DNA of 64,000 bases from Eledone cirrhosa. Lineage: Eukaryota. Shown piece after piece: positions 17,725 through 64,000 of this stretch. The number at the start of each line of letters is the position of its first letter. The first letter of the stretch is position 1. The notes under the pieces are model-generated. The model searched no databases and was not told where the DNA came from. It was given only the letters and a program-made list of their open reading frames with translations. The position numbers and the translations under genes were made by a program. The stretch spans positions 13,764,001 to 13,828,000 of the forward strand of contig OZ024759.1 in NCBI GenBank assembly GCA_964016885.1. The letters run 5' to 3'.

Positions 17725-17854
17725 CGTAGGTCCCGGGTTGAGTCGGGGATAACCACAGTAAGTAAGTTACTTAATACATGGCAGAGTAAAATTTTTTTAT
17801 TTTATAGAAGGAGCTTCTACAGGACTAGTACTGTTTCGTTCAGATGAAATCTTC

Positions 17855-17911
17855 AGGAGCTTCCTGAAGATTTCATCTGAACGAAACAGTACTAGTCCTG
17901 TAGAAGCTCCT
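17855..17911 (+). ncRNA. Type I hammerhead motif; mirrored on the minus strand at 17809-17862
   Basis: AGGAGCTTC-CTGAAGA-T TTC ATCT GAA C-GAAA-CAG tactagtc CTG-TA-GAAGCTCCT. Confidence 0.8.
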
Positions 17912-17916
17912 TCTAT

Positions 17917-17967
<51 letters not shown>

Positions 17968-17971
<4 letters not shown>

Positions 17972-18140
17972 GCACTCTGGAAGAGAAAGACCAAGGTTAA
18001 TGTATGTTGATGCCCTAAGGACAGACACTGGTCTGTTGGAGATGCAGGAAATGGCAGCGATAATGAGGGACAGAGACCGCTGGACAGATCTCATCCATGG
18101 ATCTCGGGGAATTTTACCCGCCCTAGATAGATAGATAGAT
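17968..18140 (+). mobile_element. 3' fragment of LINE family B with (TAGA)n tail
   Basis: Matches the 3' end of 58255-58905. Confidence 0.75.
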
Positions 18141-18749
18141 ATCTGCACTATACACCTCCGTCGTTGAAAAAGTATATAAAGCTGAAACCGGTACACGATT
18201 AAATGTGGAAATCCCTATGTTATAAATATATTTTTTGATATTATACTGAAAAAATCCCTCCAACTTTTTCTACTGTATTTTTTCCTTTTTACTATTTGTT
18301 TATATATATATATGTATACATACACACACACATGTATGTATGAATATGTATATATATATATATATATGTTTGTGTGTGTGTATACATATAAACATATGTG
18401 TTTATATATGTATAAATATATATATACACACATGTATGTATGGATATATATATATATATATGTTTGTGTGTGTGTATACATATAAACATATATATGTGTA
18501 CATATATGTATAAATATATATATATACACACATGTATGTATGAATATGTATATATATATGTGTGTGTGTGTATACATATAAACATATATATGTGTATATA
18601 TATGTATAAATATATATATACACACATGTATGTATGTATATATATATATGTATGTATACATGTGTGTATATGTGTATATAGATGCACACATCATCATCAT
18701 CATCATTTTACGTCCGCTTTTCATTTATATATTTGTTTGTTTAATGCAG

Positions 18750-20161
18750 GTCTTGGGGAAATAAGTTCTACCTCTGCGGAACGGTTTAGGGTGTTTTCAT
18801 GGCAAGATGATCTGCATGATGTTTCCAGAAATATTTGTGACCTCGAGAAGGAGGAAGAGGATTTTTGGTTAGAACTTATTTCGAAATACCTTCATCCAAT
18901 TGAAAAAAATGAAGAAAAAGAGATAAAAGATGAAGAAAACCTCAACGCACTCCGCAATAAAGTCTGTCTGTTGTTTTTTCTTTGTAATGGGGCATTCATC
19001 ATTGTTATCTTCACACTGCAATTCATCAACGAACGAAGCTTTGATGACAATTCATCAGGTTTATATATACCATTATCTTGTCATTCAAAAGCAGGTTTGC
19101 AGTTAAAAATCGAGCCTCTTTCAATGCTCTTCATGTTGGGATTTGGTGTGATTTTACTTATTCAGTTTTCTGCTATGGTTTATCATCGACTTGCAACACT
19201 GCTCCACATTATTGCATCAACAAATATCAACTGCATGAGGCTAAACCAAACTGAAGTTTCTTATTTGAAAATATATGATAAAATGGGATTGGTTAATGAG
19301 ATGATTAACCAAAGAGGAGATGATAGGAAGTCAATTATCTCTGAGGACAGTTTTGATACAATTATAAGCAATGCAACTTTGAAAGATCACCATCATCAAG
19401 TTTTAAAACTAGCCAAACAGAAGAGAATGAGGAAGCCAATAAGCAGCCTTGCTGACAACTTTTTCAGAAGTTTTTTGAGGCTTGCTCGTGATCTCAATAA
19501 TGATTCTATAACGGAAAATGATGGTTTGACAGATGACCAGAAAACAAAAAGCACCACCAGCTTGAAACTTACTAGAAAAAAATCAATGAATGCTATCTCC
19601 GAATTCAAGGGTCAAAACAAACATATCGTTCTGAATAAAGTAGACCGTGTTGTTGATATGATAAGACAAAAAGAACTTTCAAAATCGAATTCTAATCATG
19701 TGCTTTCTCCATCTACCCACCAAAGTAATGTACATATTTCAAATTTCAACAAGGATTTACTTGAAAATGTAAGCCATAATACTGAATCTGTTCATCATCA
19801 CATCACCAACTGTAACACTAGAGCAAATATAGAAAATATTGATGAGGAAGATGGTTCATTTCAAAATATTTCTCTGGTAGATGAAGAAAATGACACAGTA
19901 CTTGGTCAAACTCAAGTACATCCTGAAAATAGCAATGGGGAATTAGTTAAAGATGATTCTTCACCAGACCAAAAAAGGAATGCAGTACCACCTCAAAGAA
20001 AAACAAACTTAGTCTCGAGAGGTGGCACAAAATTGATGAATTTAGCAAACTACAATGTACTTAATAATGATATTTATCTCCCAGATGTATCAGATTCAAA
20101 TAAAACCAGCCATAGAACAGTTGAATTATCAGAACTGCAAATTGACAGTAGTAAATTGTAA
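18750..20161 (+). CDS. CHS: Chitin synthase terminal exon with long C-terminal tail
   Basis: Acceptor aatgcag| in phase 1, matching the previous donor. Translation EEEDFWLELISKYLHPI...LRNKVCLLFFLCNG...IEPLSMLF...IQFSAMVYHRLATLLHIIAST is typical of the metazoan chitin synthase C-terminus. TAA stop at 20159-20161. Confidence 0.92.
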
Positions 20162-20576
20162 ACATAAATAGGAATTATTAGATGGTGGCTTCCTTCACTT
20201 TTTTGATTTTTAAACACAAACAAACACAAAGTGGGGGCTATATACATAATCAATAGAATTCATTCATATAAGTTCCCCCACCCACGCTCACCACCTGCAT
20301 TCTTCTGTTGAATCATCAGCTGCCTGCACGCCATCCCTCATTGAGGATTAAACAAACAGGACACTGACAGGATATGTACTCAGAAATATGAGTCCTCTTG
20401 TCAGAAGTTCATCTATAATTTAAGAAATTATGAAAAGAAAAACAAGTGAAAAAAAAAAGAAAACCAAAAAAACAACAAACGCCAAAATATAACTTATTCA
20501 GTGATGGGTATTTTGAGTTAAGATCCTCTCTGTTTATCCCACACACTCCTCCCCTACACACATATATATATATAAA

Positions 20577-20680
20577 ATTAGTACAGATTAAAGTTTAAGC
20601 AAAGAATTGCTGCTTTCACCTTTTTACCTGTAAAAGGATGAAAGCAGCAATTCTTTATTTAAACTTTAATCTGTACTAAT
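20577..20680. repeat. Inverted repeat downstream of the chitin synthase stop codon
   Basis: ttagtacagattaaagtttaa...gaattgctgctttca versus tgaaagcagcaattc...ttaaactttaatctgtactaa. Confidence 0.85.
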
Positions 20681-20717
20681 AATAAATATTTGCTTAACAT
20701 GTTTATATATATATATA

Positions 20718-21020
20718 TGTCAGTAGTCTCCTGCCTACAACTAATCTAAGCTTAATTATTCGATTACTAACTCGAACTACCTCTATTGTCTTATTGATCC
20801 ATTTCTCAGCCAAGAAAATGCCTACTCCCCCTAACCCATCATCCTTACCTACCCAGAATAGCTTATAGCTAAGACGTTTGCTTACGACTAGTCTCGCAGA
20901 GGCACCTCTCCATCTCACCTCTTGCACGCAGCACACATCCACCTGCCTTCTCTCTAGCATCTCCGCTATTTCAGCAGATCTACCTCAGAGTGCCAACATT
21001 AAGTGTTGCAATTCTGAGAT
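20718..21020 (-). mobile_element. RTE LINE apurinic endonuclease N-terminal fragment
   Basis: MLERRQVDVCCVQEVRWRG...GGVGIFL...RVSNRIIKLRL. Confidence 0.8.
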
Positions 21021-21721
21021 GCGACGTCTTCATATTTTGTTGTTGTTCCTATTTGTTGTTGTGCTGATAAGAGTTTTGGCATTGATACACTGGTTGGATG
21101 CCCTTCCTAACACCAGCGCCACTTTACAGCATGGAATGGGTGCTTTTATTTGTGCCACCAGCACTAGAGAGGATGTCTTACTAGACTCAAGTGCCCTCTC
21201 TACCCCTCCATTTTACAGCATTGTAAAAAAAAACAAAACTTATTGACACGACGCACACACACACACCAACACTCATGCATACAAACCACAAACACACACA
21301 TGCCACTCACATACCAACACTCATTCATGCATACAAGCACACACACCACTCACAAAAACACACACATATATATATATATTACCAGCAGTACTGATACAAA
21401 TACAAAATCAAAATCATGTCAACTGTTGACTTTTCCCAGTCCAGTTCAGTTTTTATATAATAATAATAATAATAATTGTTTGCTTTACGCTGGTAATGGT
21501 GGTGGTGGTGGTGGATGGTGTCAGTATGGTGATGGTGGTGGTGGTGGAGGATGGTCAGTGATGGTGGTGGCAGTTGTTGCTGTAGTTGTTATTGTAAATG
21601 ATAATAACAATATTTAGATATAAATGTACATATCTCTATTGGTCTCATAATTTTTTTTTTATTTCCTTGTGTGAAGCAACACGTGGTTGTGTGTTGCTGC
21701 TGACTCTAGCAGAGCCGCCGG

Positions 21722-21765
<44 letters not shown>

Positions 21766-21990
21766 CCTTATCAAGCCCTCTTTGGATTTTGGTCTTCATA
21801 ATTATTATTACTATATATATATATATATAGAGAGAGAGAGAAAGATTTGAGTATGTGTTGGTTAATTTCTGACACTTCAGTATGCAGGGTAGAGCACTCA
21901 ACGAAGTACACAGGTGGGTCTGTTTACTCTGGAGTAATTTAAAAACGAGTGTAAGTCAACAGGTTAAAATTAACTTTTTTAATCATATTC

Positions 21991-22049
21991 GCTGTTATAT
22001 ATATTTCAGTGATAACCATTATTCAACAGCTATGACCTCATCAGACAGC
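21991..22049 (-). ncRNA. Type I hammerhead motif
   Basis: Minus strand: GCTGT-CTGATGA-GGTCATAGCTGTT gaat AATGGTTATCACT-GAAA-TATATA-TA-ACAGC. Confidence 0.8.
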
Positions 22050-24772: not shown

Positions 24773-24941
24773 ATATATATAATTAGAATTTATCTTTATC
24801 ATAGCTCTATACATACATGTATGTGAATTTCGTGTATGTAAAGATACAAGTATGTTTAATGAATTTTGAAAGTTTCAGCTATGAATAGAAGATTGATGGC
24901 TAGTGCTGTCAAGTAGAATCCGGCAGAAGCAAGGGGGGATA

Positions 24942-24985
24942 ATTGTCTATGCATTTCGAACTTAGATGGTTCTCATCAGGACAAT
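24942..24985 (-). ncRNA. Minimal type I hammerhead; degenerate mirror copy at 25166-25209(+)
   Basis: Minus strand: ATTGTC-CTGATGA-GAAC catctaa GTTC-GAAA-TGCA-TA-GACAAT; palindromic tetraloop in stem III. Confidence 0.85.
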
Positions 24986-26115
24986 GCTTTCTTCTTCCTA
25001 CAGGTGGACTTTGAAACACGCAAAAATAAATAGTTTTATTTCGCCTGTATAAACAAAGCTGTATAAGCTGGCTCAAATTAAAATAGAATTAAATTTTGGC
25101 TTCGACATAACAGTATACTAACTATTTTCGCCTGTCTCAAAGTCCAGCAGTAGGAAGAAGGGGGCATTGTCTTGATGAAAACCATCTAAGTTCAAAATGC
25201 ATAGACAATTATCCCCCATCACTGCTGCTGGACACTGCATATGTGTGTGTGTGTGTGTATATATATATATTCTGAAGAGATTGTTTTGGTAAAAACAGGA
25301 CCAAGCAGGAGAAAGCTCTCAACATTCGAGGTTTGTAGTTACAATGGAGATTCAGTATAATAATATCATTAATAAAGATGCTGATGTTACATAAATCATT
25401 TATTCATTATTATTATTTCAACGGTTCTCCCATGCAATCCAAGATGTACTTCATGCATTTGTTGTTGTTATGATAACGGTATCCTCAGATGAAATTCGAT
25501 TTTGTGATATGCTGCCAGCAGGAAAAAACACGTCCTTCTGCTCGTGCGTCCGGCAGAAATATAAGTTCCTGAAAGGGTCTCCCAGCTGTCATGTTTACTG
25601 GAGTAAAGTGCTATCCACGTGTCAATTAGCGAAATCAGCTAATTTCATCTGAGGCATGGCTTAGTGGTTAGAGCATTGGCCTTGCATCGAAAGGTTGTGA
25701 GTTCAATTCTCAGACCGGGTGATGTGTTGTTTCCTTGAGCAAGACACTTTATTTCACATTGCTCCAGTTTACTCAGCTGTAGAAATGAGATGATAGGACT
25801 GGGGTCCCTATCATTCCACTGCAAAGTGGTCGTGGAGGTGCCACGGCAAAAAAGCACCCAGCACTCACTGTAAATGAGGTTAGTGTTAGGAAGGGCATCC
25901 AGCTGTAGAAATCAAGCCAGAATCAGTTCCTGTCCCACCCTTGCAAGCAGGGGAAAAGCAGACATAAAATGATGATGATGATGATGATGATGATGATACC
26001 GTTCTCATAACAACAAATGCATGAATTACATCTTGATTGCATGGGAGAACCGTTGAAATAATTATAATGAATAAACGATTTTTGTAACATCAGCAGCTTT
26101 ATTAATATTATTATA

Positions 26116-33418: not shown

Positions 33419-34417
33419 TTAACCCTTCCATTACCATATTTCTAATGAAAGACACTGTATATGCCATTAACCCTTCCATTAACATATTTCTAATGAAAGA
33501 CACTGTCTATGTCATTAACCCTTTCATTACCATATTTCTAATGAAAGATACTGTCTATGTCATTAACCCTTTCATTACCATATTTCTAATGAAAGACACT
33601 GTCTATGTCATTAACCCTTTCATTACCATCTAATGAAAGACACTGTCTATGTCATTAACCCTTTCATTACTATATTTCTAATGAAAGACACTGTCTATGT
33701 CATTAACCCTTTCATTACTATATTTCTAATGAAAGGTACTACCTACATCTTTAGCCCTTTTGTTACTATATCTTTTATGAAACACATTGCCTATGTAATT
33801 AACCTTTTTGTTAACATATTTCTAACGAAAGATCCTTCAAATGGCTTTCCAATAATTTTGTAAATAATAAGGGATTTAGTAATATAATGAACTTTTCCAT
33901 TATTAAGTTGGTGTTTAGAATATAACTCAACAGAGGTTGTTATATAAAATTATGATGGAAGGTTTTTAGATGAAAATAAACACTTTCACCTTTTTATTAC
34001 TGTATTTCTGAATAATTAAGAATTTAGAGATATTTAGTCAAATAAACTAAGTTTCTCTTATCACAATGGTGTTTGGGGCATAACCTAACAAAGGTCCTTA
34101 CCTAAGATTATGATGAAAAGATTGTGAAATAAACACTTTATACTTTTCCTTACTTCTTATAAAAGACACTGTTTACATCTCATTAATCCCGCCGAGGTTA
34201 ACTTTGACTTTCATCCTTAAAATAAAGTACCAGTAATACACTGGAATAATTGTTGGCCTTGTTCCAAAAGTAGAACAATTATTAATCTGGAGTTTGAGGC
34301 ATAACTTAAAGGCCTTACCTAAGATTATAATGAAAGATGACTATAAACATTTTAAGATAAATAGTTTTGTATCATAGAAGCAGGGGTGTTTCAAGCAGTT
34401 TGCTATCAAAAAGATTA
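33419..34417 (+). mobile_element. Putative non-autonomous piggyBac-like element with about 8 copies of the 48-bp unit at its 5' end
   Basis: Starts TTAA-CCCTT and ends ...aaaaagaTTAA; same unit as 4790-5922. Confidence 0.5.
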
Positions 34418-34539: not shown

Positions 34540-35150
34540 CAATCAATTATTGTGTACAGTGCTCAGGTGCACTACAACTCATCAAAGGTGCATGTATAGT
34601 ACATAGAATAATGTACAAATGTCAGGGAAGTGAATAGTGTATGAGTCATGATATACATGTGTACGTGTGTATGGAGGGGGAGTATTCGGTGTAGCATTGG
34701 CAAATCTCAGGAAGCATGGAGGTTTTAAAGGATGCAGTGTCTCGACAGCTAACAACTGATGCAGGTAGTTTGTTCCATGGAGGTTTTAAAGGATGCAGTG
34801 TCTCGACAGCTAACAACTGATGCAGGTAGTTTGTTCCATGGAGGTTTTAAAGGATACAGTGTCTCGACAGCTAACAACTGATGCAGGTAGTTTGTTCCAT
34901 GGAGGTTTTAAAGGATACAGTGTCTCGACAGCTAACAACTGATGCAGGTAGTTTGTTCCATGGAGGTTTTAAAGGATGCAGTGTCTCGACAGCTAACAAC
35001 TGATGCAGGGAGTTTGTTCCATGGAGGTTTTAAAGGATGCAGTGTCTCGACAGCTAACAACTGATGCCGGGAGATTGTTCCATGCTTCAGCAACTCTGAA
35101 CGTGAAAAAATGTTTCCGAAAGCCATGGGAGCTGTGCTGTTTTCTGACTT
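34540..35150 (-). mobile_element. CR1/L2-type LINE 3' end containing six tandem 61-bp copies (34715-35080)
   Basis: WNKLPASVVSCRDTASFKTSM; unit catggaggttttaaaggatgcagtgtctcgacagctaacaactgatgcaggtagtttgttc. Confidence 0.75.
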
Positions 35151-35629: not shown

Positions 35630-35852
35630 CTCACCTGGATAGCTACCTCACCTTGATAACAATCTCACCTGGATAGTCACCTTGGTAGCTACCTCACCTG
35701 GATAGTTACGTCACCTTGGTAGATACCTCACCTGGATAGCTATGTCACCTGGATAGTTACATCACCTGGATAGTTACGTCACCTGGGTAGCTATGTCAAT
35801 TGGATAGCTACATCACCTGGATAGCTACATCACCTGGATAGATGCGTCACCT

Positions 35853-35856
<4 letters not shown>
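35630..35856. repeat. About 17-bp tandem repeat (tcacctggatagctaca-like)
   Basis: Seen directly; roughly a dozen degenerate copies. Confidence 0.85.
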
Positions 35857-35936
<80 letters not shown>

Positions 35937-36367
35937 AGGTGACGCATCTATCCAGGTGATGTAGCTGGATATATATATATATATAGTAAAAGTTTGGTAG
36001 AAATATCCAAGGGTAAGAACACTAAGTCCATAGGACAAGTTTAGTATAAATAATTACAACAGTGACATAAACAGGTACTTAAGTTTCGTGGGTTCTGGGC
36101 CCCAACTAATTCAGCCTGTCATAAGAAAAATGCAAAAATAAAAATTTTTAATTAACTACCTGTTTATATATATTCATTTAGGTTTGTTGGTTCACCACTG
36201 GATAGAACTGCTCATTCCGTATAGTTAACCTTAATGTAATATTAGGGAGAGCACTCGACGTAATGCAACTCACCCATCTTCGTTTGTATTGTTGGTGGTG
36301 CAAGTATGGAGTTAATTATTCTAAAATGACAGGAGGCTGGACTGGTGTAATTCCTTAAAGGTTTATT

Positions 36368-36425
36368 ATACTATGAACATTTCAATGACTGGGTTCAGTA
36401 TGAATCCGGTGACATCATCAGGTAT
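36368..36425 (-). ncRNA. Type I hammerhead motif; internally deleted mirror at 36538-36575(+)
   Basis: Minus strand: ATAC-CTGATGA-(31 nt)-GAAA-TGTTCA-TA-GTAT. Confidence 0.65.
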
Positions 36426-36619
36426 TCGAAATTTAACAACGGAATATAATAGACACAATCCATGGGGCTGAAAAGGCAGAGAGACAAGAAGGCACCCAAA
36501 CATTTAGCAGTTTCTAGTCCGGGTCGGCCGCCCTCGAATACCTGATGAACCCAGTCATTGAAATGTTCATAGTATAATAAACCTTTAAGGAATTACACCA
36601 GTCCAGCCTCCTGTTATTT

Positions 36620-36682
<63 letters not shown>

Positions 36683-43799: not shown

Positions 43800-45640
43800 T
43801 AGGTATTGACATATGTTTCTGTAACAGACGGAATAGCTATGTATCGCTGCTTGCGTAATCATATAATGTTAGCAAGTATTCGATAGCAAATGTATAATCA
43901 GTTGTCACTTCTTCAGAGATTTTGGATAAACTGGATAAAATCAGAAAAATTGAAGTATTTATATTAGTAATAGAGGAAGAAACAGAGGGGATAGTATATG
44001 ACAGATGGTAAATTAATTTACTGCTAAACAAGTATATAATGGGTTTCTAATGAGAATACCATGAGTAAATCTAAATAAGAATTTTGGGAGTGCCAATTTT
44101 AATCTCTACTTGACCAACTGTGCAGTAGTATAAATTATAAAGTGTCAATTGGGGAAGAGGGAGATTTCGATTGCTACTGAATAACATCAATGCAAGTAGC
44201 CAGCTGGTATATGCATTAGGGAATTGAATCAAGTAATCAGAAATCTCATTTTATCTATAGCAGTTTGTATTAAAAGGTAAATAATAGAAGAGTTGATAGA
44301 ATTAAGACTAATAAAGAATGTTAGTATCTATTTTGACAATCAAACGGGGATAGAGACAGGCGTTCATTCCTGGTAGTATTTATAATATGAAAATGTAGAT
44401 TTTAAGCGATGGTTACAGTATAACGATCGCTCTATTCTGTTATTTAATAAAATGTTTTTGGATTTCATAATACAAAATAATTCTACATTACATAATTTAC
44501 AAAATTCCTGTCCATGGGAATAGGGGGGGGGGGGGGGAGGCAGCCGCTATTATATCCCATTTTAGGTGAAATTGTTGGTTATTTTCACGCAGCTGCCAAG
44601 CCTTGTCTGCGAGTGTTGTTACATAACGCTGGTTTTCATGTTTTATCGAGTAACGATGTCTATAAAGGCGTGATTTGAAGGAGGTGGCTGTAGATCCCAC
44701 ATAGTACCACTTCTGTCTATCCGATTCGATAGTACATTTGTATACGATGTTGCGTTCAAGACACTGATTGTTCAACGGACACATTCCTGGTTGGACACAG
44801 TTGCAATTATAATTTTGCGTTGTTGTATTGCCATGGATGGGTTGATGAGGTTGCTTATGTAGGACAGGATGTTGTTTGTTGTTTTGTGATGTTATAGCTA
44901 ATGTTTTACGTGTATTGTTATGTGTTGGAAGGCGTTTATACAACCGTCTTGCGTTAAGCTTTTTTATATGTTGTTCAATATTAGGGGCGGTTGAATATGA
45001 AAGTCGGATGGTGTTAGGGTTTAAGATTTTATTATATTTATGTGATGTTGGAAAGTGTTTTTTAACTAATCGAAAGAATTTTGAGGGTAGATTGGTTTTA
45101 ATAGAGTTGTTATAGACCGGGTTGTACCAAATATACTCCTTACATCGCCTTCTGTTTGGTGGTGTGCGACTATTATTGTGTCTATTGCGGTAGTGTATGT
45201 ATGGTGGTGATTCTGCGCTATTTCTACTCCTATGGGATTTATTTTGGGTTTTTTGGTGATCTTTGACTATATACTCTATATTATCTAGGTGACCGGCTTT
45301 CCTAAGTGCATCATCATAATATTCGGCATGTTCTTTGAAGGTTTGTTGGTTGGAAGACAGGCGGGAGATTCTAAGAGAAACATTTCTAGGGATGGATTTA
45401 ATTATAGAGAGTGGATGGTTAGAACTCGTATTTACATATTTAAGGTTCTCATTTAGTTTATGGAACGGTTTAATCGTATCTGTATTGAGATTGAAAGTAA
45501 CATCAAGGAAATTGACCTCTTTGAGGTTATATTCAAATGTAATATTTAATCCTAGTTCCTTAAAAAGCTTTCTGATATTTTCTCCGGAATATAATTTATA
45601 CTCGTTGAGCAAACCTGCACGTACGCTGTTCATCTCTAAC
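43800..45640 (-). mobile_element. Penelope-like element: RT C-terminus, thumb and GIY-YIG ORF (44497-45633) with 3' UTR
   Basis: EVNFLDVTFNL, YVNTSSNHP, CNC...CPLNNQCL..NIVYKC...YYVGST; decayed hammerhead core near 43803-43920. Confidence 0.9.
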
Positions 45641-46074: not shown

Positions 46075-46620
46075 GTTCGTTGTTTTGAATATCTGATGTA
46101 TTCATTGGACTTAGTGATGGCTTTCCATTGAATGGAGATGTCTATACTTGAGTCCTTGAGGGACCATACATGGCTCGCGAGTTTCGTGGATGAACGTCTG
46201 TCCAGGTACCTAAAGGTCAACTGGTGGTTCAGCAAGCATTCCTTAAATCGGACCTCGGCCATACCCACATAGGATTTGACCTACTGTGGTTGATTTGGTC
46301 GGTTGGAAGTGACCACAGCTTCATAAACTACAGTGGATGTGTTGCATTGCTGTTGAAGGGGACAAGCTTCGGGCTTATGGCAAGAGCACCCTGGTGGGGT
46401 GTTGCTCTTAGGGATGTTGATGATGTGCGCCTTCATGTTCTTAGTGCAGGAGTATCCTAGTTTTACTTTGTGTCGGTTAAGGATGGAGCAGTATTTATGA
46501 CCTATAGGAAAGTGTCTATCTAAAAGGGCTAGAAACTTTTTGCCTACATTGGTTTTACCGTTGAGTGAGAAAGGAATAGAGAACCAGATAGTTTGTCTAT
46601 TGTTACGCTTTCTTGTTTCA
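46075..46620 (-). mobile_element. Second Penelope-like GIY-YIG remnant
   Basis: IWFSIPFS, KVKLGYSC, CSC..CPLQQQC..VVYEA, FKECLLNHQLTF. Confidence 0.8.
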
Positions 46621-46877
46621 CTAACAAAAACAGCAATAAGAAAAGAAAGCGATGAACTAGTTTCTAGCTTATTGGCTGTCATCAGCACCGTATACCTTGT
46701 TGTCAGATGATTGAACGTTTGAAAGTATATACTTTCCTTTTGTATACCTACCATTTATCGTTTTCGGTACACTCGGCCGACTAACTCACTCGATATGCAA
46801 AGTAGGCTGCTCAGCCATTAATATGCATAAGGAAAGTATATACTTTCAAACGTTCAATCATCTGACAGGAAGGTATA

Positions 46878-46918
46878 CGGTGCTGATGACAGCTAATAAG
46901 CTAGAAACTAGTACATTG
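46878..46918 (+). ncRNA. Minimal type I hammerhead; mirror at 46650-46690(-)
   Basis: CGGTG-CTGATGA-C AGCT aata AGCT A-GAAA-CTAG-TA-CATTG; the mirror has stem I CGGTG/CATCG. Confidence 0.75.
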
Positions 46919-47446
46919 TTCCTTTGTCAGTGTTGAACAAAATGGCAATGATGGTTGCCAAACACTGTACGGCTAATAATTTTGGCTGTTTGTTTACAAA
47001 CAAACCGAGCATTATAATAAATGTTCGGTAAACCCATACATACATATATGTGTGTGCATGTATGTATGTATATACATACTACTGTACGTCTGTATACATA
47101 TATGTATGTACGTATACATACTTATATTTATATAAATATATATATATAAATACATATATATATGTATATATAATATATATATATAATATATATATATAAA
47201 TATATAATATATATATAACATATATATATATATATAATATATAATTGTTTCTACTTTTGGCACAAGGCCAGCAATTACCCAGTGCATTACTGGTACTTTA
47301 TTTTATCGACCCCGTAAGGATGAAAGGCAAAGTTAACCTCGGCGGGATTTGAACTCGGAATGGCAAGGGGCGTAACTCTATGTGTCAAAGCATGGCGTCC
47401 GACCCTCTACCGATACTGCCATTCCACCATAATATATAATGTATAC

Positions 47447-47700: not shown

Positions 47701-47748
47701 CTATAAAGAAAACGAAAAATCAGTGATGCATCTGGACTTAATTTATTG

Positions 47749-47839
47749 CGTGTTACAATTGTTTCGCCAGCAGGTAACTTGAGACATGGTCCCTGTATGG
47801 ATCTGGTTGATTCTACGGCTGCAGGTTCTTTCAGACACG
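47749..47839 (-). ncRNA. Hammerhead variant (CTGAAAGA core, long stem II); mirror at 47906-47996(+)
   Basis: Minus strand: CGTGT-CTGAAAGA-ACCTGCAG...CTGCTGGC-GAAA-CAATTG-TA-ACACG. Confidence 0.6.
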
Positions 47840-48366
47840 GGTATTTCGTTCAGAGCAAATTTTATCACTGAAATTTTTATGTGATAAAATTTGCTCCGAA
47901 ATACCCGTGTCTGTTAGAACCTGCAGCCGTAGAATCAGCCAGATCCATACAGGGACCATGTCTCGAGCTACCTGCCGGCGAAACAATTGTAACAACAACG
48001 AAGATTGGGAATACAGAAGATGATGTGGTCAAGAGGAAGGCACAAAGCCGTGGTCAAGAGGAAGGCACAAAGCCGGGGCGGCGTGCCACAGCTTGACTGT
48101 TTCTTTATACATGGCTTGTATAGCCCTCACAAGCCATTCATCAACCCCTAGTTTTATATATATATGTAATATATATATATATATAAATTAGTTCCGAAAC
48201 GCACATCACCAACCAATAAACGTAATAAAGGAGTAACCAATCGTCATTGTTATCTTATTTAACTATAATACACTCTGTATAGCTCTGCCCCTCGACACGG
48301 AAGTGAACCTAAACATTGAGTACCCACCCGGGTGAACCTAGAGTAACTACAAGTTACATTCCCTGG

Positions 48367-49572: not shown

Positions 49573-49843
49573 GATATAATATATAATATATATATAATAT
49601 ATATAATATATATATATATATATAATATATAAAATATATATATATATATAATATATATAATATATATATATATATAATATATATAATATATATATAATAT
49701 ATATATATATATAATATATATAATATATATATAATATATATATATATAATTTATATAATATATATATAATTTATATAATATATATATATATAATATATAT
49801 ATAATATATATTATATATATAATATATATATATAATATATATA

Positions 49844-49882
<39 letters not shown>

Positions 49883-49993
49883 TAATATATATAATATATA
49901 TATATATATAATATATATATATATAATATATAAATATATATATATATAATATATATAATATATATATATATAATATATATATATAATATATAA

Positions 49994-50810
49994 TCGAACA
50001 GCAATGTTGCACGAACAGCAATGTTGCATGGCAGTGAGACCTGGGTATTATGTGCAGAGGATATACGCAGACTAGAGAGGAACGGAGCTTGCATGCTCCG
50101 CTGGATGTGTAATAGTAATATACGTGAACGGCAAAGCATTAACGAACTAAGGGAAAAATTAGAAATAAGAGGGATCAGATGTTGTTTACTCGAGAGAAGG
50201 CTACGTTGGTATGGTCACGTGATGCGCATGAAAGACGACAGCTGTATAACAAAGTGCAGGGCAATAAAAATAGACGGTACCACGGAGTAGGCAGACCCAG
50301 AAAAACCTGGGACGACTTGATAAATTCCGACCTCACACACTTACACCTCTCCAAGACAATGTCACTGGACCAAGATCTTTGGCGGAACAGGGTAATAGAG
50401 AAGACCCGCCTTACCTAAATACAAAGTAAAACCTACTACAGTCAGTAGGCACCTCTAACAAAATACACCCCCGTCCCACTACCCCCACCCCATCCACACC
50501 ACCCCTTTCAATGTAAAGTTATGTTGGTACCACAACGTCCAGGCCGAAACAAATGAGGTCGTGTAGGTGTCACGGCAAAAAAAAACACACAGTCCACGCT
50601 GTAATGTGGCCGTGTAGGCAACATGGTAAAAACCTCCCAGTCCCACACTGTAAATGTGGTTGGTGTTAGGTATGGCATCCAGCCGTAGAAAACCTGCCAG
50701 ACAGTCCTATGCGAGCAAGTCAACCACTCTTGCCTCAAGTGGGAAAACTCCCGTCCAAACCCATGCAAGCGTGGGAATATGGACGTTAACCGATGATGAT
50801 AATGATGATG

Positions 50811-50811
<1 letters not shown>
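49994..50811 (+). mobile_element. RTE LINE 3' fragment
   Basis: MLHGSETW...; short 5' duplication cgaacagcaatgttgca. Confidence 0.9.
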
Positions 50812-50865
<54 letters not shown>

Positions 50866-51023
50866 ATATATATATATATATAATATATATATATATAATA
50901 TATATATATATATAATATATATATATATAATATATATATAATATATGATGATGATGATGATGATAATGATGATGATATAATATATATATATATATAATAT
51001 ATATAATATATATATAATATATA

Positions 51024-51111
51024 TAATAGGAACGAGTAGGACCCCGACGGCTGAGATCAAGCCGTTTCGACGGCTTGAGCTCAGCCGTCGGGGTCCTACT
51101 CGTTCCTATTA
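51024..51111. repeat. GC-rich near-perfect hairpin (about 42-bp stem, TTCG loop)
   Basis: ataggaacgagtaggaccccgacggctgagatcaagccgt-ttcg-acggcttgagctcagccgtcggggtcctactcgttcctat. Confidence 0.9.
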
Positions 51112-51252
51112 CCCACTCTACTACCCTAAGTATTGAGTACTTTGGTGCGTTATGGTCCACCTGGTTCCTTACCACATTTCTTCCGTTATATATATAATAT
51201 ATATATATAATATATATTATATATATATATTATATATATATATATATATAAT

Positions 51253-51284
<32 letters not shown>

Positions 51285-51297
51285 ATATATATGTAAT

Positions 51298-51344
<47 letters not shown>

Positions 51345-51354
51345 TGTATAATAT

Positions 51355-51386
<32 letters not shown>

Positions 51387-52050
51387 ATATATATATATAT
51401 AATATATATGTATAATATATATATATATAATATATATATATATATATAATATATATATATATAATATATATGTATAATATATATATATATATATAATATA
51501 TATATATAATATATATATATATATATAATATATATATATAATATATATATAATATATATGTATAATATATATATATATATATAATATATATATATATAAT
51601 ATATATGTATAATATATATATATATATATAATATATATATATATAATATATATATATATATAATATATATATATATATTATATATATATATAATATATAT
51701 ATAATATATATATATATATAATATATATATATATATATTATATATATATATATATAATATATATATATAATATATATAATATATATATATAATATATATA
51801 ATATATATATATAATATATATATATAATATATATAATATATATATATAATATATATATAATATATATATAATATATATAATATATATATAATATATATAA
51901 TATATATATAATATATATATATAATATATATATATATAATATATAATATATGTATAATATATATATAATATATATATAATATATATATAATATATAATAT
52001 ATATATAATATATAATATATATATAATATATATATAATATATATATAATA

Positions 52051-52825
52051 TCATCATCATCATCATCATCATCAACGTTTAACGTCCGTGTTCCACGCTT
52101 GCATGGGTTTGGACGGGGGTAGTCCCACTTGAGGCAAGAGTGATTGTCTTGCTCGCATAGGACTGTCTGGCAGGTTTTCTACAGTTGGATGCCCTTCCTA
52201 ACACCAACCACATTTACAGTGTGGGTCTGGGAGGTTTTTACCGTGTTGCCTACACGGCCACATTACAGCGTGGACTGTGTGTTTTTTTGTCGTGACACCT
52301 ACACGATCTCATTTGTTTCGGCCTGGATGGCGCGGCACCAACATAACTTTACATAGAACGGGGTGGTGTGGATGGGGTGCGGGTGGTGGCGGGACGGGGT
52401 GTAGTTTGTTAGAGATGCCTACTGGCAAGGCGGGTCTTCTCTGTTACTGAGTACCGCCAAAGGTCACGGTCCAGTGACATTGTCTTGGAGAGGTGTAAGT
52501 GTGTGAGGTCGGAGTTTATCAGCTCATCCCATGTTTTTCTAGGTCTGCCTATTCCGTGGCTACCGTCTATCTTTATTGCCCTGCACTTTGTAATACAGCT
52601 ATCGACTTTCATGCGCATCACGTGTCCATACCAACGCAGCCTTCTCTCGAGTAAACAACATCTGATCCCTCTTATCTCTAATTTTTTCCTTAGTTCGTTT
52701 ATGCTTTGCCGTTCACGTATATTACTGTTACACATCCAGCGGAGCATGCAAGCTTCGTTCCTCTCTAGTCTGCGTATATCCTCTGCACACAATGCCCAGG
52801 TCTCACTACCATGCAACATTGCTGA
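52051..52825 (-). mobile_element. RTE LINE 3' fragment
   Basis: Same family. Confidence 0.9.
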
Positions 52826-52826
52826 T

Positions 52827-52863
<37 letters not shown>

Positions 52864-53094
52864 TATATATAATATATATATATAATATATATATATATAT
52901 AATATATATATATATAATATATATATATATAATATATATATAATATATATATATATATAATATATATATAATATATATATATATAATATATATAATATAT
53001 TATATATATATATATTATATATATTATATATATATATTATATATATATATTATATATATATATTATATATATATTATATATATTATATATATAT

Positions 53095-53125
<31 letters not shown>

Positions 53126-53180
53126 ATATATATTATATATATATTATATATATATATATTATATATATATATTATATATA

Positions 53181-53223
<43 letters not shown>

Positions 53224-53225
53224 AT

Positions 53226-53257
<32 letters not shown>

Positions 53258-53325
53258 ATTATATATATATATATATATTATATATATATATTATATATAT
53301 ATATATATATTATATATATATATAT

Positions 53326-54970: not shown

Positions 54971-56399
54971 CATAGATGTGGTACAAAGATGTGGTATTTT
55001 TTGTTTTTATATGCTATTGGGTTTAGCATTGTGATGGTATTCACCTCCAGCAGTTATATGATTTGGATAGCTATTATTGTAGGCAGATAGGATGCAGGAG
55101 ACACTATTCTTGCTGAGATTCTTGGGATGGTAAGAAGGTTAAGGTATCAAATTACCAGATGGGTCAGTTGCTCCTGTTCATATATGTTAAAGAATTTATC
55201 CAAATAATCTACTTATTCCAGACTATGTGTTATTAGAGAAGGAGATTCATGTGTAAATATGTAATTATGCACTGAATTTATAGGTTTAGTGATTATGCTC
55301 ATTGTTTAAGTGGAGGTTAAGGTCTACAGAATGTAGTAACTATCTAATATCAGGAATCTTTTAGGTATTTTATGCATACAAGTATTAAATAGGTCAGAGT
55401 ATTTATTAATCACCTGGTCTTTCCTACTGATAACGTGTAGTGTTTCCATTGTGCAAATATCACAGCTGAAAAATATTCACTTAAATATGGAAATGCATTT
55501 GCAAGCATCACCAAGACAATGAGTAATGTACATTGGCTTCTATATTAGTTTGGATAGTGCTATACTTTGTCTTTTATCTATTGGGTTAAATGAGTGGCGA
55601 TGATTGTACTATCTATCCTAAAACTAGTCGATGTTGCTCCAATGTTTCATATCTAGTAGTAACTCTACATTCATAAACTATGTTACTATGAAGGCATTCA
55701 TTCTGCATAGGGCAGTTGGTTGGAATCCAGCAGTTATAGTTCACATTATTGTTGTTATCGTGTGATGTGTTTCTGTCACTCTGTCTGCTGTGGGTTACTA
55801 GGGTGCTGTCTATTTTGTATATTATTTAGTGTCCTTACTACTTTTCCATAATGTTCTGTGTTTGTTTGTTAGTGTGTGCATTTTCATTATGTTCAATTTT
55901 CAAATTTTTATCATTCATCCTGGCTATGTTTTTAGTGGTAAAGTAAGATAACTTAACAGTGTGTTTAGTAAATATTATGCTTTATCTGTGTGATTTAGGA
56001 AAACATTTATCAAGTGTATTGAAGAAAAGTCAAGCTCTGCTGGTTTGTAGTCCTGAAGAGTGGGGAGGGTTATACCATAGGACAGAATGTGAAGAACATT
56101 GGGATTGCAATCGAAAGGTTGTGAGTTCAATTCTCAGACCGGGTGATGTGTTGTTTCCTTGAGCAAGACACTTTATTTCACGTTACTCTAGTTTACTCAG
56201 CTGTAGAAATGAGATGATAAGACTGGAGTCCCTATCATTAAATCACCCAAGATACCGCCAACGAGATATATCTTGGAGGATGCCAGCTAAAGCTGCATAG
56301 GTTTGAGCTGTCAAACACACACAGAATGTGATCTGGTTCTGTTCCATTGCGGCCTGATTTCCTTGGATTCGCCATACTTTGTGAAGGGGTTCCCGCTGG

Positions 56400-57368: not shown

Positions 57369-57407
<39 letters not shown>

Positions 57408-58056
57408 AAGAGTTAAACAATATTCAATGAGTATATCAAAGAATGAGTTTTACAGTAGATTGGAAGCACTCTATGGAAAATAATTTTCCAGAGTTATTAA
57501 TATTAAAATACAAATATTAATAAAATAGATGTTCTTTTTATCAATTACATTTTATTATACATATTTCGGATGTACAACAGTACGTCCTCATCAGACAAAA
57601 TGTAATGATATATGACATAGCCTGAGATGTTAAATGGTTAAGATTTAATCAAGGTAGATTAAATCTTAACCATTTAACATCTCAGGGTATGTCATCATTT
57701 CATCATTTCATTTCATTTTACGTCCGCTTTTCCCTGCTTGCAAGGGTGGGACGGGAACTGATTCTGGCTTGATTTCTACAGCTGGATGCCCTTCCTAACA
57801 CCAACCTCATTTACAGTGAGTGCTGGGTGCTTTTTTGCCATGGCACCTCCACGACCACTGTGCAGTGGAATGATATGGACCACAGTCCCTATCATCTCAT
57901 TTCTACAGCTGAGTAAACTGGAGCAATGTGAAATAAAGTGTCTTACTCAAGGAAACAACACATCACCCGGTCCAAGAATTGAACTCACAACCTTTCGATT
58001 GCAAGGCCAATGCTCTAACCACTAAGCCATGTGCCTCCACTGTCATATATCATTAT

Positions 58057-58109
58057 ATTTTGTCTGATGAGGACGTACTGTTGTACATCCGAAATATGTA
58101 TAATAAAAT
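58057..58109 (+). ncRNA. Type I hammerhead; identical mirror at 57549-57601(-)
   Basis: ATTTTGT-CTGATGA-GGACGTAC tgtt GTACATCC-GAAA-TATGTA-TA-ATAAAAT. Confidence 0.85.
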
Positions 58110-58196
58110 GTAATTGATAAAAAGAACATCTATTTTATTAATATGTGTATTTTAATATATATATATATATATAAATATATTTTATATATATATATA

Positions 58197-59569: not shown

Positions 59570-59860
59570 GGTTTTGTATTTAATGTAAATAAATATTAAG
59601 TTAAATTTGATATCTTTGATCATCTTGAAGAAGTCTTCCTCAAATGGTTCAAGTAGGCTGTTGGTGGGTGGTGCCTTATCCGAACTTATTATTGGTAGAT
59701 GCTACATCAGGGTTGTCGAGGAAGAAGGCTCTCCATCTAATTCGCTTGATGAACTCGTCGGTATGTCTGATGAGTGTTTTTAGGTAAAGTTTCCTTGAAG
59801 GGATGGGGATGTTCTTCTTGGAGACATCAAGGTTGAGTTTGGTCAGCATAGTTTCTTGGT
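59570..59860 (-). mobile_element. Penelope-like ORF N-terminal fragment
   Basis: SKKNIPIPSRKLYLKTLI...FIKRIRWRAFF. Confidence 0.65.
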
Positions 59861-59923
59861 GATGGTTATAAGGGGCACTAAGAGTGCTAAAAGGTAAGTT
59901 ACTCAATACATAGAGTATAAAAG

Positions 59924-60217
59924 TTTAATATAGAAGAGCTTCTACAGGACTAGAACTGTTTAGGAGGCGAGTGTTTCTGATTTGATTTGTCCGGTCTTCT
60001 GAAGGAGTGAGTATGGGCATACCACCGGGTCTTAAAATTATTGGAAGTAATGCCGATGTAAGTCTTTTTGTTGTTGACTTACATCGGCATGACTTCCAAT
60101 AATTTTAAGACCCAGTGGTATGCCCATACTCACTCCTTCAGCAGCCCGGACAAATCAAATCAGACAACACTCGCGTCCTAAACAGTTCTAGTTCTGTAGA
60201 AGCTCTTCTATATTAAA
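59924..60217. repeat. Fold-back element (arms about 140 bp) ending in the 3' tail of the 17855-family hammerhead
   Basis: tagaagagcttctacaggactagaactg... mirrored by ...cagttctagttctgtagaagctcttcta. Confidence 0.9.
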
Positions 60218-60459
60218 ATATATATATATATATATTGCCCGTCTAACCCATGCTAGCATGGAAGAACGGACGTAAAACGGTGATGATGATGATTATATAT
60301 ATATATAGTGGACATGTCGGCGCCATGGAAAAAAAATCACCCAGCACTCACTGTAAATGAGGTTGGTGTTAGGAAGGGCATCCAGCTGTAGAAATCAAGC
60401 CCGAATCAGTTTCCATATGAGCAAGACAAGGTCAGCCGACTGGACACTGCTCACAACAG

Positions 60460-61541
60460 GACAACCTGTCTAACTCCATGGATTCCTTCAACTTTTAGTG
60501 CTCTGTACCTTTTTATGCAGCTGTCATCCTTCATACGCATCACATGTCTATACCAACATATCCTCCTCTCCTGCACACAGCATTTGATTCCTCTTATTCT
60601 CAGTCTCTCTCTCAGTTCGTTTATGCTTTGCCGTTCGTGTATATTATCATTACACATCCATCGGAGCATGCAGGCTTCGTTTCTTTCTAATCTACAGCGC
60701 CCAAGCCTCACTACCATGTAATATTGCTGTTCATATACACGCATCATATAGTTTGCTTTCATTTTAAGGGAAAAGCCTTTTGCATCTAGCAGTGGCAGTA
60801 GCTCCTGAACTTCTTCCATCCCGTTCTTACCCTGGTTACTGTACTTTCAGAACACCCACCTCCACTGCTAATTTGGTCACCTCGGTAGCAGAAGCTGTCT
60901 ACTGTTTCTACAGAACCGTCCCAGAGTTTGGTAGTGCTTGTTTCCTGTGGTTGTTTTCTGCTTACTGTCCCAGTGCAGCTGCTACATGTAAAGCCAACAT
61001 TCCTAACTAAGCTTCCTGAGATCCCACTACATCTCTTGTGTACCCATTGTCTGCATTTGGGACAGAGGATAGAATTCCTACGAACACCTTTCATACATAC
61101 TGACCAAGGCTATTTCCCAGAGCGGATCTGGGTTCTGTTTTCTCGTCTACTTATGAGGACCTTAGTTTTTGACAGGTTGACTTTGAGACCCCATTTTTTC
61201 TAATCTCTGCTTCCATGTTTGGAATTTCTTCTTTAGTTCCGCCATAGATTCAGCTATAAGTGTAAGATCATCCGCATACAGAAGTTCCCATGGGCATCCG
61301 GTCTTAAACTCCTCTGATATAGCCTGAAATACTATAATAAACAGGAGAGGCCTAAGAACAGAGCCCTGGTGGACACCGACCTGTATGCTAAATTCCTTGC
61401 TATAGTCATTGTTAACCCTATACATGGCTTGTACAGCTTTCAGAAGCCATTCATCTATTCCAACTCCTAATTTTCTAACAGCCCACCAAATTATAGCATG
61501 GGGCACTCTGTCGAAGGCTTTTTCCAGATTAACAAATGCCA
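60460..61541 (-). mobile_element. Diverged RTE LINE fragment; another at 62520-63020
   Basis: LEKAFDRV, GVHQGSVL, LYADDL, decayed PHD-like finger. Confidence 0.85.
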
Positions 61542-61610
61542 TATATATATATATTAATAAAAGATTGGAGGCCATATTTCGTTGATTCAGGTTTATTTAT
61601 ATTTAAAACT

Positions 61611-61668
61611 CCATTATACATATTTCACTGAGGACTATCAGTTAAAATAGCCTGAGCTCTTCAGATGG
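61611..61668 (-). ncRNA. Type I hammerhead motif
   Basis: Minus strand: CCAT-CTGAAGA-GCTCAGGCTAT...ATAGTCCTCAGT-GAAA-TATGTA-TA-ATGG. Confidence 0.7.
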
Positions 61669-63124
61669 CAAAATCTAAAAATACATTGAAAGTTCCTAAG
61701 AAACCTATAATTTGAAAAAATCCAATAATTTCCCCGAAAAAGATTTTCCTTTCATGATACAGGGAGCTGGCCAAATGCACGGTGTTGTTTCTTTGCTGGC
61801 TGGCCCCTGTATAATAAAGCTCCGATTTGCACCCTTTATCCAGGTCGTTGAGCGCTTCTTTTTATCAGCTTCACAACCGACAGACAATAATGTGGTCTGC
61901 ACATCTCTGTCCGGTTAACCCCACGCCCTAATATATCATCATCATCATCATTGTTTAACGTCTATCCTCCACGCTAGCATGGGTTTAGACAGGAATTGTC
62001 CCACTTGAGGCAAAATTGGTCGTCTCGCTCGTATAAGACTGTCTGGCAGGTTTTCTATGGCTGGATGCCCTTCCTATCACAAACCACATTTACAAAATAT
62101 AAAACAATCAAATTTTTGTTCGAAATTTGATTGTTTTATATTTTGTATCCCTGCTTTGTAATACATCAGATAATTTACATTAAGCTTTTTCTCTAACTGG
62201 TAATTGGGTAGTGCTTAGTACTACCCTTTCATATTTATAATTATATATAACTCATATATAAGTGTAAATAATCATCATCATCATCACCGTTTTACGTCCG
62301 TTCTTCCATGCTAGCATGGGTTAGACGGGTTGTCCTGTTGTGGGCAGTGTCTGGTCGGCTGACCATGCCTTGCTCATACAGGAACTGATTTTGGCTTGAT
62401 TTCTACAGCTGGATGACCTTCCTAACACCAACCTCATTTACAGTGAGTGCTGGGTGCTTTTCCCGTGGCACCTCCACGACCACCTTGCAGTGGGAGGGTG
62501 TGGGGGCATATTGTCTATATGCTTCAGCTTGTACCCATGGGAGGTTGCGTACTCTGTATTACTGCGTGACGCCAGAGGTCACGGTCGTGTGTCATCACCT
62601 TTGAGAGGTGTAATTGGGTAAGGTCGGCTTTTATCACCTCATCCCAGGTCTTCTTGGGTCTCCCCACTCCGCGGTTTCCATTGACTTCTAGTGCTCTGCA
62701 CCTTTTTATGCAGCTGTCATCCTTCATACGCATCACATGTCCATACCAATGCAACTGCCTCTCCTGCTCACAGCATTTGATTCCTCTTATGCTCAGTCTC
62801 TCGCTCAATTCATTTATGCTTTGTCGTTTGCGTATATTACTATTACACATCCATTGGAGCATGCAAGCTTCATTTCTTTCTAATCTACGCAAGTCTACAC
62901 ACAGCGCCCAGGTCTCACTAGCATGTAACATTGCTGTTTGTATGCACGCATCAAACAGTCTGCCTTTCATTTTGAAGAAAAGCATTTTGCAGCTAGCAGT
63001 GGCAGTAGCTCCTTGAACTTCTTATATATATATGTGTGTGTGTGTGTGTTAAGTATTTCTGTAGAAAAGGTAAAGGAAAGAAGAAAGCTATTTACTTACA
63101 TAATAAACAACACAATATAATTAT

Positions 63125-63192
63125 TCCATTACAAAAGGTTTCAGGAGACTAAACGATCCTTACAGAAACATCCGGCCGGTTCATCAGATGAA
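63125..63192 (-). ncRNA. Hammerhead motif within fold-back 63102-63270
   Basis: Minus strand: TTCAT-CTGATGA-(38 nt)-GAAA-CCTTTTG-TA-ATGGA. Confidence 0.55.
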
Positions 63193-64000
63193 TGGGCCGG
63201 ACGTTTCTGTTAAGATCGTCTAGTTTCTTGAAACCTTTGGTAATGGGATAATTATATTGAGTTGTTTATCAGGTAATTAAATGAAATATATATATGTATA
63301 TAAAGTTGTAGTTCCTGTCTGTTTGTTTGTTTGTTCAAGAACTCCTCCTATGGTTTTGGAGATAGACCTCCATAACCATATATATTCTGAAACTACATTG
63401 CCCAGGGTACTTGCATAAGTATATTTCATTTTAATCAAAGGTTCCCCGGGGGCACAAACCCCCGCTGAAAATGTTTCCCCTTCGATTTATATGAAATTTA
63501 AACCATAGGTATGATGCCTATTCACAAAAGTTTTGAATTGATATTTTGAAAAAGATTATTTACAAGAAAGAAAATAAGAATAAGCTTTAATAATGTAATT
63601 TTGATTTGATATATTACAAAAAATAATGTTTTCCAATTTTTCATGCATTACATTTGACATTGAGTAATATTGAAATGCAGAGTTTTTCTCCATGGGATTG
63701 GCAGTATCGGTTTGAGGGTCGGGCGCCATGCTTTGCAGCATAAAGTTACGGTCCTTTGTAGTCTGAGTTCAAATCCCGCCGAGGTTAACTTTGCCTTTCA
63801 TCCTTACGGGGGTCGATAAAATAAAGTACCAGTAATTCGCTGCGATAATTGCTGGCCTTGTGCCAAAAGTATAAACTATTTTCTTACAAAAGAAATGTGT
63901 GAAACGCAGCAAGGCGCGGATATATATATAAAAAAAAAGGATCGATTGACTTTCGTCAAATCGGACCGAGGAAACAATGTTTACGTCGGTCTTTTCAGTT

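Follow-up and report, generated by a model that had tools for sequence, protein, structure and literature searches.

Head-to-head hammerhead fold-backs in Eledone cirrhosa as probable products of truncated Penelope-like element insertion

Short inverted repeats whose arms resemble hammerhead ribozymes (HHRs) recur in one stretch of the Eledone cirrhosa genome, which raises the question of how such fold-backs arise and whether they are mobile in their own right. The stretch, referred to here as the window, comprises 64,000 nucleotides (GCA_964016885.1, contig OZ024759.1, positions 13,764,001 to 13,828,000 of the forward strand) of a 3.0-Gb assembly, and is AT-rich and dense with (TA)n. An earlier note made from the letters of the window had claimed fold-back repeats at nine sites, named here by position (10425, 17798, 24920, 36322, 46650, 47745, 57501, 59924, and 63102), and self-BLAST and reading of the sequence found inverted repeats at all nine. 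The fold-backs are probably extremely 5'-truncated insertions of Penelope-like elements (PLEs), in which reverse transcription of one RNA was likely primed by both ends of the cut target. A PLE origin is demonstrated for the 17798 and 59924 families and is likely for the others. The layout of the units, the parent element, the polarity of the pairs, the continuum of spacers, and a rare variant shared by both arms are direct observations. The suggestion in the note that Penelope integration at TA targets gives rise to the fold-backs is supported by the parent PLE, the one-sided tail, the spacer continuum, and a junction that is remade within one variant lineage.

The 17798 element, which gives its sequence to family 1, is composed as follows.
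17724–17797, minus strand: one-sided tail of ~70 nt, which in the parent continues into the start of the open reading frame (ORF); parent match 17858–17724, 92%.
17798–17858, minus strand: direct arm on the tail side, with HHR core, stems II–III, the 3' strand of stem I, and an A-run.
17859–17861, no strand assigned: centre of 3 nt, non-palindromic, occurring in both orientations relative to the tail.
17862–17922, plus strand: inverted, tail-less arm, with HHR core from 17864, ending in (TA)n at 17920–17969.
Between 17902 and 17903, plus strand: cleavage site of the inverted arm predicted from the HHR motif.

A family 1 unit reads, in order, (TA)n, the tail-less arm, the arm with its ~70-nt tail, and (TA)n, both ends of the insertion sitting in (TA)n. 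The tail is one-sided in 55 of 56 distinct family 1 palindromes, is on both sides in none, and is lacking at one. The 3-nt loop is oriented one way or the other relative to the tail at 34 and 20 of these loci (p = 0.08), the remaining two having a perfect and a shorter centre. Among the tail-less ends, 26 of 54 have A/T runs that differ from a plain copy of the tail-side A-run, as slippage would produce, whether during priming or afterwards. Family 1 lacks the fixed, symmetric terminal inverted repeats of such transposons as MITEs, its tail being one-sided and its end ragged. A one-sided tail was also observed in the 63102, 47745 (11 other listed loci), 57501, and 10425 families, and at 36322, 57501, and 10425 the family sequence extends on one side only. 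The strand symmetry that had been proposed does not hold, since each element runs beyond the limits first assigned to it on one side, either as tail or as parent sequence.

The arms were screened with a relaxed type I HHR descriptor (7-base core, GAAA, a short or palindromic stem III, UH, and a stem I of at least 4 bp); a stricter descriptor gave 4 matches only, and the loosened version was used for the counts. It matched 48 times in 384 kb, compared with 0–1 times in each of 10 Markov controls, and 49 times in 59 random 10-kb stretches (590 kb, with 20 of the 59 also part of the 384-kb set), compared with 0–2 in five controls. The type I motif is present in the pseudo-long terminal repeat (pLTR)-like arms, with descriptor matches far over control. 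One arm of 17798, 24920, 36322, 46650, 57501, and 63102 is matched, each time with a mirror copy upstream. Rfam at its gathering threshold returned no hammerhead family in the window, and the 150 of 297 E-value matches that were listed included zero hammerheads, those shown being generic hairpin microRNA models; the HHR assignment therefore depends on the descriptor of this analysis. Of the hammerheads claimed earlier for each arm, the descriptor matches at least one in these six elements; 47745 is non-canonical, and the core in the right arm of 63102 is incomplete.

The HHR copies point outward far more often than inward. In the 590 kb of random stretches, inverted HHR pairs of at least 90% identity, separated by 73–4194 bp, comprised 14 outward and 1 inward (p = 0.001), and pairs at any identity comprised 16 outward and 6 inward among 22 (p = 0.052). 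Of the 49 matches themselves, 23 lacked an inverted partner, 19 had one upstream only, 4 downstream only, and 3 on both sides. The family 1 core has 1698 exact matches genome-wide; among the first 100 listed, neighbours closer than 10 kb were outward in 20 cases, inward in 4, and direct in 1, and of the inward cases two involve neighbouring units of a tandem duplication and one involves two separate insertions. The outward bias is genuine and extends outside the window and beyond the mini-elements, yet it is strong and not absolute; for the cases that it listed, the note had described polarity as never reversed.

The parent of family 1 was found by a search for the sequence past the tail, which gave 17 loci. 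Seven of these (L086, L090, L093, L094, L099, L100, and L101) continue for at least 400 nt as the 5' region of the ORF, the read-through at L092 is interrupted by an insert, and the remaining loci break off into another HHR copy or into flanking sequence. At eight extended parent loci, the distance from HHR to HHR is ~4.2 kb, and locus L123 has a single frame of 823 codons. Motif reading of its protein identified YRDD in the reverse transcriptase (RT) region and a C-terminal YIG endonuclease, together with RWR, DKT, the linker CNCPDKTTC (CxCX5C), CDLC (CxxC), and CMH (CxH), which are kept in homologs. The protein has 1426 homologs at E ≤ 1e-20, at ~40% identity over the full length, and one of the four homologs scanned (P0051) lies above the Pfam cut-off for GIY-YIG. 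No match to an RT profile was found, so the RT is assigned from the conserved YRDD motif, and both assignments derive from motifs and homologs instead of a direct profile match of the parent protein. These features fit a PLE bearing Hydra-clade motifs, and family 1 could already be among the Hydra sequences in the supplements of PMC8557442. A reading of locus L038 as a tandem ~175-nt retrozyme was dropped, as its “linker” is the 5' region of the ORF.

A single ORF joining an RT to a C-terminal GIY-YIG endonuclease was found for the 17798 and 59924 families, that is, for two of about seven families; near the other six listed elements, protein matches are no commoner than in random DNA. The second case is a sister family of the first.
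59588–59849, minus strand: 5' end of a disrupted PLE ORF belonging to the sister family, 66–75% identical in amino acids to the family 1 protein.
59850–60217, no single strand: head of that broken PLE, with the direct arm on the minus and the inverted arm on the plus strand; the junction is unique and the right end lies in (TA)n.

Each arm of 59924 consists of an endonuclease-coding piece joined to the 3' half of the HHR through an identical internal deletion, and the left arm enters the start of the ORF at 59849. The 59924 element is the head of a broken coding PLE, and the description of this fold-back as keeping only the 3' half of the ribozyme is confirmed, with fusion to an endonuclease-coding piece. 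The identical deletion in both arms favours a fold-back or a template that was already deleted.

Spacers between paired family 1 cores, among the first 100 listed, range continuously from 14 bp to 6.3 kb. A hand count of the 100 first-listed arms gives ~58 that retain parent upstream bases and ~42 in which the match to the parent breaks off no more than 7 bases upstream of stem I. The edge of stem I is a strong truncation hot spot within the 4.2-kb element, and the stubs are the short extreme of a continuum of insertion lengths.

Whether a junction is inherited or made anew can be followed with a T-to-C variant carried by the 17798 copy in the window. The variant has 19 matches at 11 loci (~1% of the family). 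Eight of these loci have two arms that contain the core, and in each of the eight both arms carry the variant; six different centres occur among them, and one of the eight retains upstream bases of the parent. L246 is a long copy of the parent type. Six centres with one variant imply that junctions are remade within one lineage, the result applying to one lineage of one family, and the presence of the variant in both arms implies that the arms share one template or that one arm was copied from the other. Similarly, a 4-nt insertion is present in both arms at locus L048. Over 72 arm pairs (a variant-enriched set with a few duplicates), 11 differences were shared and 34 unshared, which argues that later arm-to-arm conversion is not general. 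At 9 of 15 loci, the antisense tail runs up to the HHR cleavage site, where a 6-bp match in stem I joins it to the sense core, and at L240 and L241 the tail arm stops inside the tail, before the HHR. These non-overlapping arms require two separate complementary DNAs (cDNAs). The join of antisense tail to sense core is about one-tenth as frequent as the main centre and reflects either run-off at the cleaved 5' end or homology-driven switching.

Recurrence of a junction at many loci had been proposed as the mark of a replicating element. The 17798 junction does recur, one centre being repeated exactly 93 times in the genome, and the best 40 of 642 family 1 candidates all match the full 125 bp on both strands, at 98–100% on the best strand. 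However, this outcome is not decisive and is best explained by a hot spot of truncation and joining, the 17798 centre probably being remade at each insertion. A unit mobilised whole is not supported, given the asymmetry of the units, the place of 59924 at the head of a coding PLE, and the 59924, 24920, and 46650 junctions, which have no close full-length counterpart among the best 40 candidates of each. The two loop orientations were at one point taken as proof of de novo joining; this argument was dropped, because a palindromic template predicts both as well.

Taken together with what is published on related elements, the insertion may proceed as follows. A PLE would place inverted and direct copies of its HHR-bearing 3' end head to head inside (TA)n. 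The GIY-YIG endonuclease would cut both strands of the TA run; one target 3' end would prime at the A-run just behind the ribozyme, giving the tail-less arm, and the other would prime at the end of the tail, ~70 nt further, giving the tailed arm. Both cDNAs, copied from one RNA, would in many cases end at the 5' strand of stem I, where self-complementarity may let them anneal, and repair of the annealed cDNAs would yield a small set of recurring centres.

A different source for the second arm is self-priming, in which one cDNA (or an antisense RNA) of a PLE folds at a short palindrome and copies itself; PMC3846280 (Arkhipova et al., 2013) proposes self-priming on the antisense template for the inverted copy of PLEs. 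Self-priming explains the variants shared by the arms and the double deletion of 59924 without extra assumptions, and the centres are located at short palindromes. However, it cannot yield a sense arm with sequence missing from the antisense arm, as at 9 of the 15 loci and at L240 and L241, and it is opposed by centres in both orientations to the tail and by slippage-like tail-less ends. Self-priming as the source of the second arm is rather unlikely, and dual priming on one RNA is preferred, although both may occur. The palindromes might instead propagate themselves as non-autonomous elements, with a hairpin transcript copied from both starts, annealing of the cDNAs, and scrambling of the loop. 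The 93 identical junctions and 39 other copies alike at 98–99% over 125 bp would suit such an element, which also expects the 34:20 mixture of loop orientations, and in the 47745 and 63102 families the best 40 candidates are all whole and of similar length, the search listing such copies first. Yet the eight loci of one variant lineage have six centres and include copies with parent upstream sequence, more than half of the first-listed arms (~58 of 100) retain parent sequence, the 59924, 24920, and 46650 junctions do not recur among their best 40 candidates, and the template would be a hairpin predicted at -107 kcal/mol, which makes self-propagation very improbable. A mixed reading, in which one PLE RNA serves two primers with stopping and joining at stem I while in the 47745 and 63102 families the hairpin stub itself is the template, rebuilding the arms and scrambling the loop at each jump, is decidedly unlikely.

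The short, high-copy inverted repeats adjoining TA could also recall fold-back artefacts of assembly, or else DNA transposons that resemble miniature inverted-repeat transposable elements, bounded by terminal inverted repeats and duplicating a TA target. Such explanations conflict with the one-sided tail, the ragged ends, the variable centres, and the link to an RT-coding parent; moreover, the flanks are unmirrored, the 57501 arm is interrupted by a later repeat, and the 17798 junction occurs in independent short reads. In Illumina run X23, 7 of 50 aligned reads wholly fit the 69-bp junction stretch, and in run X24 three reads with a single start position carry the perfect-palindrome form. Run X2 gave short contigs over both junction forms, of which one has 51 nt with fewer than 31 bases per side and is hence weak, and a presumed-RNA run from another organism gave a single 37-nt piece, favouring neither outcome. 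The majority of reads aligned at the junction go on into parent sequence. The suspicion of an assembly artefact is not borne out, as independent short reads span the centre, albeit weakly by flank length; the fold-backs are genuine genomic features, and transposon-like or artefactual origins are extremely improbable and already largely refuted.

Several points weigh against the explanation by truncated PLE insertion with dual priming. The shared variants and the 59924 deletion in both arms also fit a one-cDNA fold-back or arm conversion. At the most frequent centre, with 93 exact copies, the overlap with the parent is a single base, and this centre needs a multi-step or heteroduplex explanation; the ragged A-runs may reflect later microsatellite slippage. 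One of the 15 near-identical HHR pairs, at L280, is inward, its copies being 98.7% identical at a distance of 4.5 kb. Neither Pfam nor PDB yielded anything useful for the parent protein itself. Parents are known for two families only, and the 24920, 36322, 46650, 47745, 57501, and 63102 families may include non-autonomous ones.

Within the fold-back, the ribozyme is predicted to be trapped. For the whole 17798 element, the predicted fold is a hairpin at -106.7 kcal/mol, compared with -33.1 kcal/mol when stem I is forced (+74 kcal/mol). As the tails face outward, the antisense arm would be transcribed first on either strand, from which the HHR is predicted never to fold. In single arms, stem I is in the minimum-energy fold for most, and the full three-way junction was not seen; the parent copy at L123, with two substitutions in stem II, has a predicted fold lacking the HHR. 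The rod-like RNA suggested earlier is thus supported by the folding prediction, but in such an RNA the ribozyme would be inactive. On this model the stubs are probably dead ends, and they could supply the genome with much hairpin RNA.

The remaining fold-backs of the window vary in age and completeness.
10425–10740, no strand assigned: internally shortened relative of 47745, with (TA)n on the left and the family tail on the right.
24902–25232, no strand assigned: old fold-back, HHR intact on the minus arm (core at 24979) and decayed on the plus arm.
36180–36621, no strand assigned: fold-back 36322–36621 with its left family extension; HHR on both arms; right end at (TA)n.
46642–46925, no strand assigned: fold-back of a high-copy HHR family; left arm shortened, right arm continues.
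47705–47996, no strand assigned: fold-back whose HHR-like motif is non-canonical; the actual left end lies at (TA)n, and the right arm is truncated.
57405–58158, no strand assigned: fold-back with tail 57405–57499; arms 57500–~57700 and 58041–58158; HHR cores at 57594 (minus) and 58064 (plus).
57697–58040, minus strand: ~340-bp dispersed repeat resembling a short interspersed nuclear element (SINE), with a tRNA-like head; a later, unrelated insertion in the right arm of 57501.
63050–63282, no strand assigned: fold-back 63090–63282; the minus arm keeps an intact core (63187), and the plus arm breaks off within its core; left tail partly deleted.

These elements had been described as unrelated in sequence, which is contradicted by self-BLAST matches of 10425 to 47745 (71–89%) and of 59924 to 17798 (91–94% over 34 bp). 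Decay of the right arm, noted as occurring in some elements, applies to the plus arm of 24920, whereas in 63102 the right arm is truncated within the core and not decayed. What had been taken as one fold-back at 57501–58158 is really a fold-back of ~320 bp whose right arm holds an inserted repeat of ~340 bp. The 36322 family sequence runs on leftward only, to at least 36180. The motif of 47745 has no canonical 7-base core, contains one extra base and an insert of ~65 nt, and is missed by the descriptor.

The family junction searches list whole palindromes first and therefore give no share of whole-palindrome copies. Among the best 40 candidates in each case, the 59924 palindrome (1135 candidates) was matched whole at its own locus only, and the best other full-length match in the 24920 family (1364 candidates) was 75%. 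The 46650 family (2823 candidates) has at least 15 other full-length matches at 82–89%, the rest being single arms at 95–97%; the junctions differ among the copies listed, and some loci may be tandem. The best 40 are all whole in the 47745 family (2824 candidates), as palindromes of ~330 bp with varied centres, and in the 63102 family (1861 candidates), at 80–90%, with junctions clustered in a hot spot where the core begins, centres that vary, and a tail on one side. Zero copies of the 47745 family were found in 710 kb of descriptor-searched DNA.

Other fold-backs, in which no HHR was detected, lie at 7469–7710, 16209–16507, 20568–20689, 35833–35956, and 62075–62163; of these, 35833–35956 closes a 17-bp tandem array and forms a perfect palindrome centred on (AT)40. 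At 3956, 9935, 22044, 41201, 59105, and 61664 lie single HHR motifs that belong to PLE-type families and have no close mirror copy. Decayed coding pieces of other PLE families, 25–35% identical to the family 1 protein, occur on the minus strand at 44539–45582, 46098–46613, and 55369–56083, and a near full-length PLE ORF adjoining the window (L135:265–2388) is 49% identical to it. An inverted pair of 1.5 kb at 49574–53283 (86%, TA-rich) includes 230 bp (51142–51371) that are 91% identical to DNA downstream of the L123 parent. The window also contains a 48-bp minisatellite common to 4790–5922 and 33419–33832, a 61-bp array at 34715–35084, and the ~340-bp SINE-like repeat with a tRNA-like head at 1053–1385, 14568–14871, 17330–17668, 25655–25996, and 57697–58040.

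As elements, the stubs are ordinary PLE debris. Nevertheless, how PLEs make the inverted copy and finish the second strand becomes testable from genome data, and thousands of young, tiny insertions with marked arms could separate self-priming from dual priming. The same insertions point to a function of the hammerhead helix in ending and joining cDNAs, beyond cleavage. Literature on minimal palindromic PLE stubs or on dual priming by one RNA was not found in a search whose scope left out subscription journals and Repbase/Dfam.

Non-long terminal repeat (non-LTR) retrozymes (PMC7229834; bioRxiv 10.64898/2026.07.22.740005) are likewise non-coding type I HHR repeats tied to PLEs, but they form head-to-tail tandems of working ribozymes, whereas in the window the elements pair head to head and their ribozyme is predicted to be trapped. 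Head-to-tail HHR monomers are absent from family 1, which continues into an ORF. About 25 kb upstream of the window, L134:4965–7780 is a 9.1-copy array of a 311-bp HHR unit (99% alike) with one inverted head copy and (TA)n flanks, which resembles a non-LTR retrozyme and has the outward layout of the fold-backs.

Published insertions of endonuclease-bearing (EN+) PLEs (Craig et al., 2021, PMC8557442; PMC3846280) share 5' truncation, partial tandems, an inverted head-to-head 5'-truncated copy, a tail at one end, an HHR in the pLTR, and palindromes at the inverted junction. They differ in that many insertions here are cut to the HHR alone, stem I marks a strong stop, and centres recur; the tail is ~70 nt here, compared with 30–40 nt there. 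The Hydra clade of C-terminal EN+ PLEs (PMC8557442) likewise has a single ORF, a C-terminal GIY-YIG, a canonical-type HHR, and insertion in (TA)n, as well as RW(K/R), DKT, the CxCX5C linker, and CxxC and CxH around a conserved E and N. The repeat unit is ~4.2 kb here and “generally <3 kb” there, this copy has RWR for RWK, and the likeness is one of motifs, not a tree-based placement. Finally, the Anolis Poseidon PAc system (Frangieh et al., 2024, PMC11167929) belongs to another clade but likewise has two internal RT start sites bounding the tail and an AT-rich target, with both strands cut and extended, a predicted dimer, and uncleaved RNA as the main template. Second-strand synthesis is left unexplained in that paper, as is the inverted copy in its main text, and the later steps are unvalidated; dual priming from one RNA, with stopping and joining at stem I, is the preferred reading for the fold-backs of E. 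cirrhosa.

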